55,759 nucleotides of DNA from assembly GCA_944332025.1 (NCBI GenBank), contig CALVJB010000004.1:1-55759 (forward strand), in the 5' to 3' direction. Made by a program: the position numbers and the translations under genes. Under the pieces are notes generated by a model. It was not told the DNA's origin. It saw only the letters and a list, made by a program, of their open reading frames with translations, and ran no database searches. Below, piece by piece: positions 265-48,817 of the stretch. This DNA is from an uncultured Bacilli bacterium. GTDB lineage: Bacteria; Bacillota_I; Bacilli_A; RF39; UBA660. The first letter of the stretch is position 1, and each line of letters starts with the position of its first letter.

Positions 265-1101
265 ATGGGAAAAGAACAGTATTCAGAAGAAAGATTAAAG
301 AAGTTAAATTATACAAAGTTTGTGCGATTATTAGGAGTTGGAAGAGTAATATTTTATGCAATGATAAGAACAATTCAAAAAGAATTAAATAAAAAGCATA
401 AAAATAAAAGAGGAAGAACACCTAAATATGGTGCTAGAGAAATGGTTATAATATTTCTTTTATACATAAAACAATATAATGCAATGGAAGATTATGCTTT
501 TGAATGGGACGTATCTAAAAGCGTTATATGTGAATACATACATTTTGTATTAAATACACTTTTAAAAGATAGAAATTTTACTCTTATGGGTTCTAAATGC
601 ACAAAAAATGAAAATTCTGAAAACAGATTACTAGATGTTACAGAAATCAGAATTCAAAGACCAAAATACAATCAAAAAAGTAAATATTCTGGTAAAAAGA
701 AATATCATACAATGAAAATTCAAATTATTAAAGGAACAGATACAGGCTTTATTTATGAAATACAGATTGGATTAGGTGCAGAGCATGATTTTCACCTTTT
801 TAAGAGGACATTTGAAGGAACTCCCGAAAATGTTACTTACACAGCAGATTTAGGATATGTTGGAATAAATAAGATTCACAATAATAGTAAAATTCCTAAA
901 AAGAAAAGTAAAAATCATCCTCTTACTGAAGATGATATAAACTATAATAAGGATATTGGCTCGACTAGAATATTTATTGAACATACTAATGGTTGGATTA
1001 AAAGGTTTAAGATACTTAGTACTAAATTTAGAAATAATTTAAATTTTTTTGCACCATTTGCTGTTTTGATTTGTGCATTGTATAACTTTTATATTGCTTA
1101 A
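265..1101 (+). CDS. IS5-family DDE transposase (HTH plus DDE_Tnp_4-like)
   Basis: LLDVTE, YSGKKKYHTMK, ADLGYVG and RIFIEH motifs; N-terminal RGRTPK and HTH. Confidence 0.92.
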   Translation: MGKEQYSEERLKKLNYTKFVRLLGVGRVIFYAMIRTIQKELNKKHKNKRGRTPKYGAREMVIIFLLYIKQYNAMEDYAFEWDVSKSVICEYIHFVLNTLLKDRNFTLMGSKCTKNENSENRLLDVTEIRIQRPKYNQKSKYSGKKKYHTMKIQIIKGTDTGFIYEIQIGLGAEHDFHLFKRTFEGTPENVTYTADLGYVGINKIHNNSKIPKKKSKNHPLTEDDINYNKDIGSTRIFIEHTNGWIKRFKILSTKFRNNLNFFAPFAVLICALYNFYIA

Positions 1102-3157: not shown

Positions 3158-4429
3158 TTAATCTTTTAAAGTCCCAATTGATACTACATATATTCCATCA
3201 TCTCGTTTATATGAATAATCTGCCCCTGTTAATACCATTAAAAATGATGGTTCTTTATATTTATCTGTATCTACATTTTCTTTAAATTTAGTTAAATTTG
3301 AAACTGCATCAGGAATTTCTCCTGCTCCTAATTTAATTTCAATTGCTCCCCATTTACCATCAGCTGTTTCTAAAATACAATCTACTTCAAAATTATTTTT
3401 ATCTCTATAATAAGATAATCTTGCATCAATAGCATCAGCATATATCTTTAAATCTCTCATACACATATTTTCAAAGATGAAGCCTGTAAAATTTAAATCA
3501 TTTATTAAATCTTCTCTTTTCAAATTTAATGTTGCTATTACAATGGAAGGATCAACTAATTCTAATTTAGGTGAAACTCTTAAAGGAGTTTTAGATCTTA
3601 AATTAAGATTTGTAGCAGGAATATATTCTAATATATATAGTTTTTCTAAAGTATTTAAATAATCATCTAATGTAGGACGAGAAACTTCACTAGCAAATTC
3701 TCTCTTAACACTTTCTAAAATAGTACTTTTACTTACATTTGTTGATATATTCCTAGAGATACTCTTTAAAACTGCCCTCATTTTTGAAGTGTTTCGGCTG
3801 GCACCATCTACATTTTTTATTTCTTCGTTTAATAAACTTTGAACATAATCTTTAGAAATTTTATATTTATTATCTCCATTAATATTTAAAGATTCAGGCC
3901 ACCCACCTCTTATCATAGCATTGATTAAGCCGTCAAAGTCTAGTTCTGATATTCCTGATATATCATTACCATTTATAATATCATTTAAAGATACACTGCC
4001 ATTAGATTCTAAAGATTCATATAATGACATAGGTCTCATAAGTAATTTTGTAATTCTTCCAGTTCCAGTATGCATAACACTATCTTCCTGTGGTCTAGCA
4101 GAACCAGTTAAAATATATTGTCCTTTTAGTCCTGTATGATCAATATCCATTCTTATAGAATCCCAAAGGGCAGGATACATTTGCCATTCAACAAATAGTC
4201 TTGGCTTTTTCCCTTCTAAAAATAATGATGGTTTAGTTTGATTTGTTTTATCATATTGCATCTTTTTATCAGGATCTTGAAATTCAATATAACTTTTGGC
4301 AAATTGTTTTGCTGTAGTTGATTTTCCGCACCATTTACATCCTTCAATTAAAACTGCTCCCATATATTCAAGTTTGTTTTGTAACATTTTATCTATAATT
4401 CTAGGTAAATATTTTTTCATTAATATCAC
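3158..4429 (-). CDS. AAA_14/DUF4143 ATP-binding protein with a variant Walker B
   Basis: GCKWCGKST Walker A; ILTGS; RGGWP; C-terminal EVDCIL...AIEIK PD-(D/E)xK-like motif. Confidence 0.88.
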   Translation of the reverse strand: MILMKKYLPRIIDKMLQNKLEYMGAVLIEGCKWCGKSTTAKQFAKSYIEFQDPDKKMQYDKTNQTKPSLFLEGKKPRLFVEWQMYPALWDSIRMDIDHTGLKGQYILTGSARPQEDSVMHTGTGRITKLLMRPMSLYESLESNGSVSLNDIINGNDISGISELDFDGLINAMIRGGWPESLNINGDNKYKISKDYVQSLLNEEIKNVDGASRNTSKMRAVLKSISRNISTNVSKSTILESVKREFASEVSRPTLDDYLNTLEKLYILEYIPATNLNLRSKTPLRVSPKLELVDPSIVIATLNLKREDLINDLNFTGFIFENMCMRDLKIYADAIDARLSYYRDKNNFEVDCILETADGKWGAIEIKLGAGEIPDAVSNLTKFKENVDTDKYKEPSFLMVLTGADYSYKRDDGIYVVSIGTLKD

Positions 4430-4477
4430 CCTCCCACATTAGATTACATTATTTTTTTAAGTTTTTGTTAAGAGTTT

Positions 4478-4539
4478 ATTTTACATTTTGGCTCACTTTC
4501 ATTTTGCATTTTGGCTGTATTTTACTTTATCTTTTGGCT
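4478..4539. repeat. Three direct repeats with a 23-bp period upstream of the ATPase promoter
   Basis: attttacattttggct (4478), attttgcattttggct (4501), actttatcttttggct (4524). Confidence 0.85.
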
Positions 4540-4551
4540 ATTCAATATTTT

Positions 4552-4938
4552 CTAATTATTAAACCTTAATAAATAACCATCAGGATCTTGAATTAAAAAC
4601 TCTTTATCTAAATATGTTTTACCATTAACATCGTATTCATTTGTCATTATGTCTTTAAAGAATGTTATATTTTTATTAACTAATTCTTGATAATAGTTAT
4701 CTATATCACTTACAGTCATGCTTATATTTATACCCCTACCAAAGGGATACTCTAACTTTCCTGTATTCCAGTTATCATTAATTTCTTCTATCATTAATTG
4801 ATTACCTTCTAATTCTAAAAAGGCAAATTTATCTTCTTTTCTTTCATACATTATTTTAAATCCTAGATTAAGATAAAACTCTTTACTTTTATCTATATTA
4901 GTTACACTTAACTCTGGTATTAATTTGTTAAATTTCAT
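4552..4938 (-). CDS. VOC/glyoxalase/bleomycin-resistance family protein
   Basis: LIPEL.V, SKEFY..LGF, PFGRGIN and QDPDGYLLRF motifs. Confidence 0.88.
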   Translation of the reverse strand: MKFNKLIPELSVTNIDKSKEFYLNLGFKIMYERKEDKFAFLELEGNQLMIEEINDNWNTGKLEYPFGRGINISMTVSDIDNYYQELVNKNITFFKDIMTNEYDVNGKTYLDKEFLIQDPDGYLLRFNN

Positions 4939-5037
4939 AATAATTTCCTTCCTTTGTTACAATTATATCATTTACTAGACTATAATAATAACTTATTTTC
5001 TTATTAAGAATAAACTATATTGGAAAGGAGAATTGCT

Positions 5038-5520
<483 letters not shown>

Positions 5521-22211: not shown

Positions 22212-23486
22212 CTATGGTTTTAATGCAGTTATAGGAACAATATATATACCAGTCTCTTTATCTTTTACAACTGATGTAAAATTTCCTGTTATTATGCACA
22301 TGAATTTAGGTTTAGTTATCATATTATCATAGAATTTTAGTAAATCTTTCTTAGCAGTTTCAATAGCATTATATCCTAGTTTTATTTCAACCGCTGCATA
22401 ATCGCCATTAGAAAACTCTAAAATTGAATCAACTTCTAGACCTGTTACATTATCTCTAAAATGATATAGATGTCCACCTAAATATTCTATATATATTCTA
22501 AGGTCCCGTTCTACTAGTGATTCAAAGAGAAACCCAAACGTTTTTAAGTCTTTAAGTAATTTATCAGCATTCATATTTAAAGAGGCACAAGCAAGTGAGG
22601 GGTCTGTTAAGTGTCTTTTTGGTGATTTACCTATTCTCTCTTTAGAACGATAGTTTTCACTATAGGCTTCTTGATTTTCTATTATATGCAATCTATCTAA
22701 TACATCTAGGTAGTCTCTTAAAGTTATTCTGCTTTCAATTAATTCTGATTCATTTTCATAGTTATCTATATCTTTTATAAGTGTTTCATTGCTAACAACT
22801 GTAGATTCATTTCTTGCTAATGATTTAAGGAGCATTCTCATCTTATTTTTATCTCTTTTTTTATCATCATTCATATCTTTATCAAGAATAGATTCTATAT
22901 AACTTTTAGGTATTAATCCTACCTTATCTGCATCTACTTTTATATTACTAGGCCAGCCTCCTCTTACTATTAGGTTAGCAAGTTCTTTTAAAGATGGTAT
23001 TTTTACATTAACATTTTTCTGTTTATCTTCTAGCATTGCTGTTAAGGAAGCATCTCCAGTTGAGTCACCTGATTCATAAAGTGACATAGTATACATCTTT
23101 ATCTTACCAATTCTCCCTGCCCCCGAATGAAATACTTCTTTTTTTCTTTCGTCATTCAATTCTGTTGAGCACGTTAATATATATTTACCTTTCTTAGAAT
23201 CTTCATCACATTTTCTTCTAACTTTATCCCATATTTTAGGTACTAAGTGCCATTCATCTATTAATTCAGGTTGTTCTTCATTTAATATCAGTTCTAAATC
23301 AAGTAATGCTCTTTCTTTAGTTTCATCATCATCTAAATAGACAGCACTTTTAGCATGCTTAGAAGATGTCCATGTTTTTCCACACCATTTAGGTCCTTCA
23401 ACAGATAAGGCACCAAAAACTTTTAAATAGTCATCTAAGTTTTTATCAATTAATCGTGGCATATATTCATCGTTATTAAAGTTCAT
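22212..23486 (-). CDS. AAA_14/DUF4143 ATP-binding protein; start probably MNFNN at 23486
   Basis: GPKWCGKT, LIDEWH, RGGWP and EVDSIL...AVEIK motifs; RBS gaggtg. Confidence 0.9.
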   Translation of the reverse strand: MNFNNDEYMPRLIDKNLDDYLKVFGALSVEGPKWCGKTWTSSKHAKSAVYLDDDETKERALLDLELILNEEQPELIDEWHLVPKIWDKVRRKCDEDSKKGKYILTCSTELNDERKKEVFHSGAGRIGKIKMYTMSLYESGDSTGDASLTAMLEDKQKNVNVKIPSLKELANLIVRGGWPSNIKVDADKVGLIPKSYIESILDKDMNDDKKRDKNKMRMLLKSLARNESTVVSNETLIKDIDNYENESELIESRITLRDYLDVLDRLHIIENQEAYSENYRSKERIGKSPKRHLTDPSLACASLNMNADKLLKDLKTFGFLFESLVERDLRIYIEYLGGHLYHFRDNVTGLEVDSILEFSNGDYAAVEIKLGYNAIETAKKDLLKFYDNMITKPKFMCIITGNFTSVVKDKETGIYIVPITALKP

Positions 23487-23540
23487 AAAGAAATCACCTC
23501 TATATAGAGATGATAACATATTTTTATGGTTTATTCAATA

Positions 23541-23606
23541 TTTGATATACATTTTTTAAGGATTTTGATATGCAAATTTTAAGAGTTTTGATATACAATT
23601 TTTAAA
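23541..23606. repeat. Three direct repeats with a 23-bp period upstream of the ATPase promoter
   Basis: tttgatatacattttttaag (23541), tttgatatgcaaattttaag (23564), tttgatatacaatttttaaa (23587). Confidence 0.9.
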
Positions 23607-24462
23607 AGTTTGTAATTACATAATATACTCCAAAACCAACTGCAATGATTAAGATTAATGAGAATAAGAACTTTAAGAAACCGATAAACTTTGATGGTTT
23701 AACTTCTTCCTCATCATCACTTTCAAAGTCCTCTTCACTTAAATCAAGGCTCTTAGTATAGAATGATTTATCTATTTCATCTTTTAAAGACATGGTCTTT
23801 TCTTTAACTTTATCTAACTTCTTAGTATCATCTTCTACTTTACTATCTTCTATCTTAGTAGCGATAGGCTTTAACACTTCTTCATTTACATTAGTAGCCA
23901 TTAAATCACTAAGTAAGCTGTTATTGTCATTAGATTCAACTTCTTTTTTATCTATTTCTTCTCTTAACTCTTTAGAAGTAATAGTATGTATTAACTCTTC
24001 AAGTTCCTCTTCATTTTCAATAGGTTTATGTCTTAATTTAGTCTCTTCTTTAAATTTCTCTAAATCTTCTTCACTACTTTCTAAGATGTTATATTTTTCA
24101 TTATGTAGTTTTCTTTTCTTTTCTAGAGAATCTCTTTCTCTTAGTTCTTTCGCTTCTTCTAGAACTTTATTAATATCATAGGTTTTATGTTCATCGTTAT
24201 AAAGAAAATTAAATTCATCTAATTCTTTTCTTTCTTTAGGTTTTTCTATATCTATATCATAATCTTTTATTTGATGATATCCTTCTCTTGTACGATAATT
24301 CTTTTTCGCTGCATTTAACTCAACCGCTTCTATTTTAGATACATCTGTTAGAGTAGTATATTTTTCTAATCTTCCTAAGTCATTATATAAATCTTGATTT
24401 TTTTCTGTTCTACTTCTAACTGTGCTTCTATTTGAATTATCATACCGTTCCATTCTTCCCAT
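23602..24462 (-). CDS. Hypothetical acidic protein with a C-terminal membrane anchor
   Basis: Charged helical body and a terminal hydrophobic helix. Confidence 0.75.
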   Translation of the reverse strand: MGRMERYDNSNRSTVRSRTEKNQDLYNDLGRLEKYTTLTDVSKIEAVELNAAKKNYRTREGYHQIKDYDIDIEKPKERKELDEFNFLYNDEHKTYDINKVLEEAKELRERDSLEKKRKLHNEKYNILESSEEDLEKFKEETKLRHKPIENEEELEELIHTITSKELREEIDKKEVESNDNNSLLSDLMATNVNEEVLKPIATKIEDSKVEDDTKKLDKVKEKTMSLKDEIDKSFYTKSLDLSEEDFESDDEEEVKPSKFIGFLKFLFSLILIIAVGFGVYYVITNF

Positions 24463-41561: not shown

Positions 41562-42785
41562 TTATTCTTCTAATAAAAAGTCTATAATATTTATTACTTC
41601 TATACCATCTATTTGTTTATTTTTTACATTATCCATTGTTAATATAACTTTCTTATAATTATCATTGATAGCAAGTAAAGACTTCTTTTCTCTTTCTTCT
41701 ACTTTTTCATCTAAAATACTTCTTGATACTTGATAGTATACTCTTTCGTTTGATTTAATGGCAATGAAATCAATTTCAATATTATCATACTTTCCCACAT
41801 AGACTTCATATCCTCTTCTTAGTAATTCTATATAAACTAAGTTTTCATAACTACTGCCACTATCATATGAAGAAGTACCATCTATTACATTTTTTAGACC
41901 ATTATCAACGAAATAATATTTTCCCTGTGTTTTTAATAATTGTTTTCCTTTTAATTCAAATCTAGGTACTCTATAGATGAAATATGCATTCTCTAACATT
42001 TTCAGATAGGCATCTACTGTTTCATTACTAATAGAACTACCATTTTTTTTCATAAACTCGGCAATAGAATTAGGAGTAGTTAAATTACCTATACATGAAG
42101 CCATATATTTTATTAAATTATCTAAAAATACTATATCTTTTATATTGTTTCTACTAATAACATCTTTCTTTAAAACAACCTCTTTTATATCATTTAAATA
42201 GTTAGTCATCAATTCTTCATTATCATTCATGTTAACTAACATTGGCAAACCACCAAATTTTAAGTATTTATCAAATTTTTCAAACTTTTCCTCATTATTT
42301 TTAAATGGGTATTCTTTGATAAACTCTTTAAAAGAGAATGGATATATCTTTATTGTTAAAACTCTACCTGCAAGTAATGTTGTAAGTTCACTTGATAAAA
42401 GATAAGCATTTGATCCTGTTATATAAATATCTGAATTAATATCTACTAATAAAGAATTAACTGCTTTTTCCCATTTATCTACATTTTGTACTTCATCTAA
42501 TAATATATATTTTTTGTTGTTATTTTTTACTTTCTCTTTTATATAGTTATATAAATCTTTATAATCTTTTATATCGTAAAATGTGGCACTTTCAAAATTC
42601 ATATATATTATATCTTCTTCATTTACTTTCTCAGTTATTAGATAGTCTTTATATTGTAATAATAAAGTACTCTTTCCACTTCTTCTTACTCCTGTAATTA
42701 CTTTTATTAAATTTAAGTCTTTCCCTGCTATTAATTGATTTAAGTATTTTTCTCTTACAAGCATAAATATCACCTCTAGTATCAT
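41562..42785 (-). CDS. AAA_14/DUF4143 ATP-binding protein, second subfamily
   Basis: GVRRSGKST, LLDEVQ, ITGSNA and EIDFIA...YYQV motifs. Confidence 0.9.
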   Translation of the reverse strand: MILEVIFMLVREKYLNQLIAGKDLNLIKVITGVRRSGKSTLLLQYKDYLITEKVNEEDIIYMNFESATFYDIKDYKDLYNYIKEKVKNNNKKYILLDEVQNVDKWEKAVNSLLVDINSDIYITGSNAYLLSSELTTLLAGRVLTIKIYPFSFKEFIKEYPFKNNEEKFEKFDKYLKFGGLPMLVNMNDNEELMTNYLNDIKEVVLKKDVISRNNIKDIVFLDNLIKYMASCIGNLTTPNSIAEFMKKNGSSISNETVDAYLKMLENAYFIYRVPRFELKGKQLLKTQGKYYFVDNGLKNVIDGTSSYDSGSSYENLVYIELLRRGYEVYVGKYDNIEIDFIAIKSNERVYYQVSRSILDEKVEEREKKSLLAINDNYKKVILTMDNVKNKQIDGIEVINIIDFLLEE

Positions 42786-42809: not shown

Positions 42810-42839
42810 AAAGTTTTACGGCTATAACCGTAAAACTTT
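42810..42839. promoter_or_regulatory. Near-perfect 30-bp palindrome overlapping the ATPase -35 box
   Basis: aaagttttacgg-ctataa-ccgtaaaacttt; minus-strand TTGACA, 16 bp, TATAAT follows. Confidence 0.7.
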
Positions 42840-47869: not shown

Positions 47870-48817
47870 TTAAACTTCATAAACTTTATTAAAGTATTCT
47901 TTTATTATGTCTGTTTTAATCTCTTTATTTATTTCTGTATTTTTCCAAGGATCTTCTTCATGAGTAAAATCAATTAACTTGTTTGCCTCCATACTTCCGT
48001 AGCTATCAATAACTTCATTAATTACTTTCTCTAAACCATTTGATATCTTTTTAACATTGTCATCAGTTTTAATTTCATTACTATGATTTTCTTTATATTT
48101 TTGATATACTTCATTTACAACCGGTCCATATGACCATGCCATTATTTTTTCTTTAAAAGCTATTTTTTCAAAAACTTGTAAACTAATGGCTTGGACATAA
48201 TACAATAATTTTTGCAATTTTAAATTAGTTATATATTCAGGGACAATATTATATTCATTTACTAATTTATCAACTTTTTCATTATATATTTTTATAATAT
48301 TTTCTGCTACATCAATTACGTTTTCTTCTTCAAAAGATAATAGTTTTTTATCAAATGTATTTATGTCTATAAGGTCATGTCTTTTCAATGTCATTAATTC
48401 TTGTACTTTATTTAAAGTTGATTTATATAATGAGTCAGTTATGTTATTTTTGTTTTTCAAAAGTAGAAAATACATATTATTAGGATTGTTTGATAATCTC
48501 ATTATAGAATCTACTGCTTCTGTTTGTATTGCTCCTTTTTCAAAACGATGAACAGTTATCTCTCCTACTCCTATAATAGAAGCATACTCTTTTTGAGTTA
48601 AGTCGTATTTTTTTCTTATTTCTTTTATTTCAGTACTTGTTAATAAATTTTTTTGCCTTTTATAAATATTGTATAATCTATTATCATTTTCTATTTCTAT
48701 CTCTCTATTAAATATTTCTTCATCAAATTCATCTACTAAATAATACTCATCATAGGAAATGATTTTATCTTTAACTTGTACTTTAACTTTTCTAACTCTT
48801 AAATTATTATTTTTCAT
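47870..48817 (-). CDS. Antitoxin: MqsA-like HTH fused to a Panacea (DUF4065/SocA) domain
   Basis: EIKEIRKKYDLTQ...RFEKG; ITNLKLQKLLYY, AWSYGPV and THEEDPW motifs. Confidence 0.85.
   Translation of the reverse strand: MKNNNLRVRKVKVQVKDKIISYDEYYLVDEFDEEIFNREIEIENDNRLYNIYKRQKNLLTSTEIKEIRKKYDLTQKEYASIIGVGEITVHRFEKGAIQTEAVDSIMRLSNNPNNMYFLLLKNKNNITDSLYKSTLNKVQELMTLKRHDLIDINTFDKKLLSFEEENVIDVAENIIKIYNEKVDKLVNEYNIVPEYITNLKLQKLLYYVQAISLQVFEKIAFKEKIMAWSYGPVVNEVYQKYKENHSNEIKTDDNVKKISNGLEKVINEVIDSYGSMEANKLIDFTHEEDPWKNTEINKEIKTDIIKEYFNKVYEV

Follow-up and report, generated by a model that had tools for sequence, protein, structure and literature searches.

Two genes in the window (the whole stretch of DNA analyzed here, 55,759 nt) encode DUF4143-family ATPases and are each preceded by three direct repeats of 23-bp period set directly against the promoter (Table 1), raising the question of what these arrays do and whether they belong to the proteins encoded beside them. 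The window constitutes the entire contig C4 of a 1.59-Mb host genome (27% G+C) and is chromosomal, carrying polC, ddl, a Mur ligase gene, suf genes, ffh, and fmt. A total of 18 DUF4143 genes are present in this genome, seven of which form one subfamily (best PADLOC model PDC-S01/PDLC04790), comprising ATPase 1 and ATPase 2 of the window, a copy on C24, a tandem pair (C18a and C18b), a copy on C49, and a truncated copy on C43.

Table 1. Positions of the DUF4143 genes, promoters, repeats, and array-flanking gene in the window.
Feature	Positions	Strand	Description
DUF4143 ATPase 1 (P0001, 420 aa)	3158..4420	-	predicted AAA+, winged helix, PD-(D/E)xK; ATG behind GGGAGG Shine-Dalgarno
ATPase 1 promoter	4443..4471	-	TTAACA 4466-4471, 17-nt spacer, TGTAAT 4443-4448
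Array 1, three 23-bp direct repeats	4478..4546	-	gene orientation: distal 4524-4546, middle 4501-4523, proximal 4478-4500
Glyoxalase-family gene, upstream neighbor	4552..4938	-	Pfam Glyoxalase 2.9e-07; stop codon 5 bp from distal array end; module boundary
DUF4143 ATPase 2 (P0002, 424 aa)	22212..23486	-	Pfam AAA_14 + DUF4143
ATPase 2 promoter	23510..23538	-	TTGAAT 23533-23538, 17-nt spacer, TG-extended TATCAT 23510-23515; called by promoter scan
Array 2, three 23-bp direct repeats	23541..23609	-	unit in gene orientation (C)TTAAAAWWTG(T/C)ATATCAAA
Third DUF4143 gene	41562..42764	-	best PADLOC model PDLC04787; other subfamily, outside the 23-bp class
Private 15+15-nt palindrome before third DUF4143 gene	42810..42839	.	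runs into TTGACA -35 box of that gene

The array upstream of ATPase 1 was picked out in an earlier note on this DNA, which placed its units at 4478, 4501, and 4524 with an exact 23-bp period, 6 bp from a minus-strand promoter (TTAACA, 17 nt, TGTAAT), and the sequence is as it described. The core TTTTGGCT on the plus strand (AGCCAAAA on the minus strand) recurs at 4486-4493, 4509-4516, and 4532-4539, again exactly 23 bp apart, with each unit containing a box A (AGCCAAAA) and a box B, (T)G(T/C)AAAAT. Since array 1 was missed by Tandem Repeats Finder (min_score 30), it was assessed by self-match statistics, which gave 0.72 over the three units (z 6.6 versus shuffles). A contig from an RNA library (run X10; a related strain ~93% identical) contains ~21 extra letters at the distal end of this array (window 4540-4548), which may represent a fourth unit. 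Contigs over the gene, some spanning the array, were also seen in four chicken-gut metatranscriptome runs of one study; these make neither start nor strand visible and may reflect DNA carry-over. The neighborhood further includes a DDE transposase gene (DDE_Tnp_4/DDE_Tnp_1; 265-1101, plus strand) at the contig start, ~2 kb from ATPase 1, and a short collagen-triple-helix repeat gene with GPT-type 9-bp repeats (5020-5520, plus strand), which adjoins the glyoxalase gene.

A consensus promoter scan called nothing at ATPase 1, where the -10 box carries G, not A, at position 2. At the same spot, the ortholog in the relative G015 has TATAAT, and TATAAT or TACAAT is found in G015 and seven other genomes of the genus. 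The Walker B motif of ATPase 1 also differs, with Asp replaced by Val (D77V; FVEW) in this one of 79 aligned proteins. The ortholog in G054, another species of the genus, has the same D77V and the same G at -10 position 2 with the reading frame open, and that in G015 pairs LFDEW with TATAAT. As judged from these two changes, the ATPase 1 copy may be hydrolysis-deficient and weakly expressed, and may no longer work as the rest of the family does.

ATPase 2, which shares 38% identity with ATPase 1 (164/427), was said to have the same arrangement at 23541. The triplet of units and the 17-nt spacer are indeed repeated there, but the gap between the -35 box and the array is 2 bp, compared with 6 bp at ATPase 1. 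Array 2 was recovered by Tandem Repeats Finder (23541-23612, period 23, 3.2 copies, 80% matches, score 95) and has a self-match of 0.83 (z 8.2); its distal unit overlaps the stop codon of an ORF at 23602-24462, and metagenome relatives of ATPase 2 retain the array. We also noted that the promoter spacer (23516-23532) reads AAACCATAA, almost the last codons of the family, AAACCATAG (Lys-Pro-stop); it looks as if the ATPase 2 cassette once stood downstream of another copy, as in the C18 tandem pair.

The domain guesses of the earlier note (AAA+, winged helix, PD-(D/E)xK) were borne out by Pfam, by a structural model, and by Foldseek. The ATPase 1 protein matches DUF4143 (2.2e-32, 112.4 bits, cut-off 28.1) and AAA_14 (5e-12, 46.4 bits, cut-off 27) as well as the PADLOC PDC-S01 model PDLC04790 (1.1e-57, residues 1-418), and the ATPase 2 protein matches the same three (DUF4143, 102.7 bits; AAA_14, 45.5 bits; PDLC04790, 7.1e-58 over residues 7-422). 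Both contain the Walker A motif GCKWCGKS, with IDEW as the Walker B motif in ATPase 2. In an AlphaFold model of ATPase 1 computed from 79 aligned proteins (pLDDT 92.3, pTM 0.92), the AAA+ part is predicted to extend to ~residue 205 and to be followed by a winged helix with three helices (211-223, 231-245, and 248-260) and a beta hairpin wing (264-288; strands 264-267 and 285-288). Residue 249, on which the strongest covariation with DNA falls (below), is the second residue of the third, putatively DNA-contacting recognition helix. The C-terminal end is a predicted nuclease of the PD-(D/E)xK type, with D347, E361, and K363 invariant in all 79 proteins and strands at 345-352 and 357-363; D340 is nearly invariant, and the adjacent residue 341 lies in the loop before the strand bearing D347. 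The DUF4143 family is listed in a survey of PD-(D/E)xK proteins, in the part of that survey available to us (PMC3424549). The best Foldseek matches of the model were two archaeal AAA+ ATPases, 2fna (SSO1545; rank 1, E 3.3e-06, TMq 0.40) and 2qen (PABY2304; rank 6, TMq 0.44), with further matches to Orc1/Cdc6 on origin DNA, STAND NTPases, clamp loaders, and DnaA (3r8f), and of the C-terminal end to Card1/Can2-type nucleases. A sequence search of the PDB returned 0 hits.

Within the host genome, all seven subfamily paralogs carry direct repeats of 23-bp period at the promoter, each with its own word, and the closest pairs of paralogs have similar words. Self-match of at least 0.70 at period 23 occurs at only four loci genome-wide. 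Crude gene calling (ORFs of 150 aa or more, chosen greedily without overlap, each with 220 nt upstream) gave 1143 genes, and in five of their upstream regions 23 was the best period with z of at least 4. Four of the five belong to subfamily genes and one to the divergent neighbor of C18a, which shares the same array. Given how rare period-23 self-match is genome-wide and in gene upstream regions, a chance origin of the window arrays is excluded. Equal frequency of such arrays before unrelated genes would have told against the earlier note, but they were not seen there, with one exception: an AlbA_2/HATPase_c_4 gene on C5, unrelated to the subfamily, is preceded by a sixth signal (z23 5.1). At this locus (L189, C5:44125-44330), an exact 23-bp triplet (AGTC...GTTAAATT) and four 11-12-bp repeats (TTCTATACTTT) precede a 432-aa SLFN_AlbA_2 + HATPase_c_4 gene located directly after a ClpC-like gene.

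DUF4143 genes of other subfamilies were observed with promoter repeats of other kinds. As before the third DUF4143 gene of the window, six other PDLC04787-type paralogs in the genome each have an inverted repeat of their own at the same place. The PDLC04786-type paralogs on C16, C38, and C23 (loci L001, L007, and L009) have promoter direct repeats or GTAC-N5-GTAC palindromes with a 32-33-bp period, and the PDLC04786-type paralog on C1 has no such promoter repeats. We remark that 23 bp corresponds to ~2.2 helical turns and that 32-33 bp is one turn more. Elsewhere in the window, a gene at 47870-48817 (minus strand) encodes HTH/MqsA-like and SocA/Panacea antitoxin domains, beside two small ORFs without family.

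The earlier note had proposed looking for 23-bp periodicity upstream of such genes more widely. In a scan of one genome per species, 602 of 608 candidate stretches yielded relatives, of which the best 80 were retained; these loci represent Bacilli, Clostridia, Bacteroidota, Spirochaetia, Saccharibacteria, Kiritimatiellae, Propionibacteriaceae, and two archaeal families. Periods of 12-40 were compared in the 220 bp upstream of the subfamily genes, leaving 77 loci scored after three with <150 nt of upstream sequence were dropped. The best period was 23 in 74 of the 77 (70 of these with z of at least 4), in all 19 usable loci of 23 from a viral collection, and in 85 of 88 usable loci of 89 from a second genome set. 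Overall, 23 was the best period in 178 of 184 upstream regions from many phyla, versus 0 of 216 controls with z23 of at least 4 (0/74 downstream, 0/76 mid-gene, and 0/66 far-upstream). The arrays range in size from three to seven units per locus, and close relatives differ by whole units (four in L113 versus six in L114; three in L131 versus two in L132). In some small-genome relatives of the same class (e.g., G369, G450, and G095), the subfamily gene has 2-8 in-frame TGA codons, which fits a TGA=Trp code in those lineages.

When the arrays were rotated onto one register, a common unit emerged (ATTTCGCCAAATTACAAAATAAA), with box A at positions 5-10 and box B at positions 13-19. Box A is GCCAAA in array 1 and TTAAAA in array 2, and box B is TGTAAAA and TGTATAT, respectively. 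Given this common register, the two window arrays, taken by the earlier note to be unrelated in sequence, are by alignment divergent versions of one family-wide plan of a GCCAAA-like box A and a box B. The orientation of the unit relative to the gene is constant in 80 of 83 arrays, and the promoter is locked to the repeat: of the 67 loci whose sigma-70 promoter could be scored, 49 have the start of the -35 box at lattice phase 1-3 (chance, 3/23) and 55 have it at phase 0-4. The -35 box lies within the last called unit, one period after it, or one period before it, and often reads TTGACAAA at the place where box A would be. For ATPase 1, at which the script picked a poor promoter, the phase was set by hand (TTAACA starts 26 bp past the register start of the last unit, i.e., phase 3).

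A further indication that each protein reads its own array comes from covariation between protein residues and unit bases. In the first 79 protein-array pairs, the top cell of corrected mutual information joined residue 249 and unit position 15, with the pairings Lys and (C/A)GGAA, Asp and CCGAA, Pro and GTAAAA or ATAAAA, Ser and TCTCC, and Asn and CACAAT or CCCAAG. With the winged-helix columns left out of the tree, the test of K249 versus GGA[AG] had eight independent pairs, of which 7.9 agreed in direction and none ran opposite (p ~0.008); swapped controls on these 79 pairs were null. The tested motifs were chosen after viewing these pairs, and new loci were collected for that reason, yielding a held-out set of 81 pairs once four near-duplicates of training proteins and three loci without an array had been removed. 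In the held-out set, GGA[AG] accompanied K249 in 7/9 versus 6/72 (p ~0.25), CCGA accompanied D249 in 7/18 versus 2/63, and CCA[AT] accompanied K341 in 17/28 versus 4/53; the direction was as expected each time, and significance was not reached in these pairs alone, which include too few independent ones.

All 160 pairs were then combined, with the tree built without the tested columns. K249 went with GGA[AG] in 20/23 versus 9/137 (of 12 independent pairs, 9.4 agreed in direction and 0.1 ran opposite; p 0.004), D249 with CCGA in 16/29 versus 3/131 (p 0.016), and K341 with CCA[AT] in 50/67 versus 7/93 (p 0.016), and three cross-controls were null. A mutual-information scan of 300 protein columns against 17 DNA positions ranked 249/15 (z 11.1), 249/16 (z 9.0), and 341/5 (z 7.6) at the top, with Lys249 accompanied by G15 in 22/23, Asp249 by C15 in 20/29, and Lys341 by G5 in 59/67. 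The pairing of Lys with G and that of Asp or Glu with C follow textbook preferences. The window proteins fit both rules, ATPase 1 with P249 and K341 (A15 and G5) and ATPase 2 with I253 and N344 (A15 and T5), and among close relatives of ATPase 2 from a metagenome scan (15 loci, 12 usable), Ile/Val goes with TGTATAT (n = 8) and Thr with TGCACAT (n = 4, one mixed). The residue-to-base code is partial: Glu249 also occurs with CGGAA, CCGA is absent from 13 of the 29 Asp249 arrays, and tests of S249/CTCC and of N249 motifs in the 160 pairs reached no significance.

The covariation with the HTH region raised in the earlier note thus appears at residue 249 and base 15 on independent branches, and its proposal that each ATPase recognizes its own array gains support from the subfamily-wide arrays, the private repeats of all seven paralogs, and the two covarying position pairs. 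Since residue 341 adjoins D340, in the loop ahead of the D347 strand, the second of these pairs suggests that the nuclease domain may touch box A.

We consider it probable that arrays 1 and 2 are the cognate self-operators of the two ATPase-nuclease proteins, acting in negative autoregulation. In the mechanism we propose, the 23-bp unit would consist of two half-sites, box A and box B. A single protomer would read box B through the N-terminus of its recognition helix (residue 249 in ATPase 1, 253 in ATPase 2), and the same protomer would probably read box A through the loop beside the PD-(D/E)xK active site (341 in ATPase 1, 344 in ATPase 2). Protomers would line up head to tail on a strict 23-bp lattice that runs on into the promoter, with the -35 box occupying the box-A place of the next lattice site; given that shared place, a full lattice would block RNA polymerase, and the self-operators would probably function in negative autoregulation. 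The comparisons show the arrays, their occurrence throughout the subfamily, their constant orientation and promoter phasing, the covariation at two residue-base pairs, and the accessory nature of gene plus array (below); that the protein physically binds, that it does so cooperatively, in which direction it regulates, and whether ATP or the nuclease plays a part are inferences.

The sign is where the most serious alternative arises, namely that the protein binds its own array but activates its own promoter or switches it in an ATP-dependent manner. In most loci, the well-conserved units stop just upstream of the -35 box, a geometry that would also suit an activator, and many loci, both window loci included, have three strong units upstream of the -35 box ending 2-6 bp away. 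The phase lock, moreover, is explained equally well by occlusion and by a fixed contact with RNA polymerase. We nonetheless regard activation as unlikely: most of the promoters come close to consensus, many with a TG-extended -10 box, so that activation should be unneeded, the -35 box lies within the last called unit in at least 20 loci, and in one clade (C24, L051-L054, L073, and L101) units occupy the promoter spacer and cover the transcript start.

Comparison of empty sites in relatives, also suggested by the earlier note, found gene, promoter, and array absent together at both loci. At the ATPase 2 site, the flanks adjoin in five genomes of the same genus (G016, G014, G017, G018, and G009), with all three components gone, and in G006, G015, and G004 there is neither gene nor promoter while three, three, and two units, respectively, are left behind one shared junction. 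At the ATPase 1 site, G018, G004, and G007 are without everything up to the glyoxalase stop codon, and homology to the window resumes at ~4548. A pattern search for array 1 (0 control hits) found it in 16 of 53 genomes of the genus, followed downstream by the ATPase in 10, a GNAT gene in four, and a Ppx-like and adenylosuccinate-synthetase-like gene pair in two. The array is therefore an orphan in six of the 16 (loci L158, L161, and L159 in the relatives G006, G010, and G016), with a relic of the ATPase C-terminus behind the GNAT gene, and altogether an array was kept while its gene was lost or replaced in three separate events. By these comparisons, the gene and its array are an accessory module; the self-contained character claimed for it holds insofar as the flanks adjoin without gene, promoter, and array in several genomes of the genus, but not insofar as the array can outlast the gene.

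The three junctions differ (one directly follows the last unit, another follows the -10 box, and the third falls at the -35 box) and thus define no recombination site. Site-specific recombination at the array edge was rejected on this ground and on the ground that retention of the array is not improbable. Hallmarks of a mobile element were absent: the array is on one side only, the module holds no recombinase, and there are neither target duplications nor a single fixed junction.

This turnover bears on a second alternative, in which the array serves chiefly for docking, assembly, or cutting, either by parking the nuclease in a silent state until some trigger arrives or through breakage that drives gene gain, loss, or exchange, with regulation secondary. 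In its favor, box A covaries with a residue beside the acidic D340 of the PD-(D/E)xK fold, so that the nuclease domain would sit on the operator; the catalytic D347, E361, and K363 show no variation among the 79 proteins; and the accessory module has three times left its array behind. Against this stand the three different breakpoints, which give no defined recombination site, and our estimate that about half of the intergenic region lies on the promoter side of the array, so that three retentions are unsurprising, along with the lack of target duplications and of a recombinase, and the presence of only 24 relatives in 2.9 million viral contigs. In addition, one PDC-S01 coding sequence placed in E. 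coli B without array and promoter gave no protection from T7, T5, or T4 and was not among the four protecting systems, in the parts of the source available to us (10.1101/2024.09.26.614923). On balance, we find a mainly docking or cutting role quite unlikely.

Finally, although the genome is 27% G+C and the units are rich in A-tracts, it is very improbable that the repeats have nothing to do with the ATPase, whether as sites of another host factor, as structural or curved DNA, or as AT-rich repetition arising by chance, given that their words are private to each paralog in one genome, covary with residues of the adjacent protein, and follow the gene across bacterial phyla and archaea before different promoter types, with the controls lacking arrays.

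Beyond the self-operator reading lies a broader and tentative one, which we would put forward as a possibility at some distance from the main claim: that DUF4143/PDC-S01 proteins are sequence-specific nucleases, driven by ATP, which read box B with the winged helix and box A with the nuclease domain and whose specificity can be reset by very few residues, and that each paralog sits parked, in the form of a phased filament, at a promoter address private to it. Were this true, the array would serve at once as operator, as assembly site, and as potential cut site, which could explain both the 18 mutually insulated paralogs and the turnover of genes beside surviving arrays.

One report, in the parts available to us (PMC12988326), presents PDC-S01 as a fusion of an ATPase with a PD-(D/E)xK domain, ranks it fourth in frequency among the defense candidates of prokaryotes, counts 29,494 bacterial and 9,986 archaeal detections, and treats validation as pending. 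In the accessible text of the literature on DUF4143, PDC-S01, COG1373, and AAA_14, we found no upstream repeats, DNA-binding specificity, or autoregulation, and no published activity, ligand, or target for PDC-S01 (AAA_14 + DUF4143). The conserved cognate site, together with a partly readable residue-to-base code, makes this uncharacterized and very common family directly testable, and assays of the coding sequence alone may omit an essential part of the system, i.e., the array and promoter. The many private protein-operator pairs in one small genome also constitute a natural set of orthogonal DNA-binding modules.

Among known systems, ATPases 1 and 2 fall within PADLOC PDC-S01 (AAA_14 + DUF4143; COG1373), a phage-defense candidate, both matching PDLC04790 over their full length (E ~1e-57). 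The best structural matches, SSO1545 (2fna) and PABY2304 (2qen), come without a sequence-level relative in the PDB, and we know of no DNA site for either protein. Archaeal Orc1/Cdc6 proteins (2qby, 2v1u) share the order of AAA+ then winged helix, with 2qby_A and 2qby_B at Foldseek ranks 2-3 (probability 1.00), and repeated sites (ORB) adjoin the gene of the Orc1/Cdc6 protein that reads them. In Orc1-ORB structures, the contact is bipartite, made by the winged helix and a second domain. The likeness has its limits, however: TM-scores are only 0.25-0.28, and the proteins studied here have a C-terminal nuclease domain, 18 copies in a 1.59-Mb genome, and a strict 23-bp lattice locked to the promoter. 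Nothing here points to a replication origin, and 18 paralogs per genome argue against an origin role.

Plasmid iterons (pPS10 RepA, R6K pi, and RK2 TrfA) are ~20-bp tandem direct repeats read by a winged-helix Rep protein encoded adjacent to them, and the Rep genes are autoregulated through sites in their own promoters, with specificity private to each element. The arrays described here similarly combine tandem direct repeats beside the gene of a putative winged-helix reader with private specificity, but they come without a replication module, and the second reading head would reside in a nuclease-type domain. A plasmid iteron/Rep replicon was itself rejected as an identity for these loci, given the chromosomal site among polC and ddl, AAA_14/DUF4143 not being Rep, and the seven arrays in one genome. 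DnaA, lastly, is an AAA+ protein with a DNA-binding domain that oligomerizes on repeated boxes and represses its own gene. Its boxes differ from the present arrays in being 9-mers of irregular spacing with one specificity per cell, whereas here many paralogs each have a word of their own.
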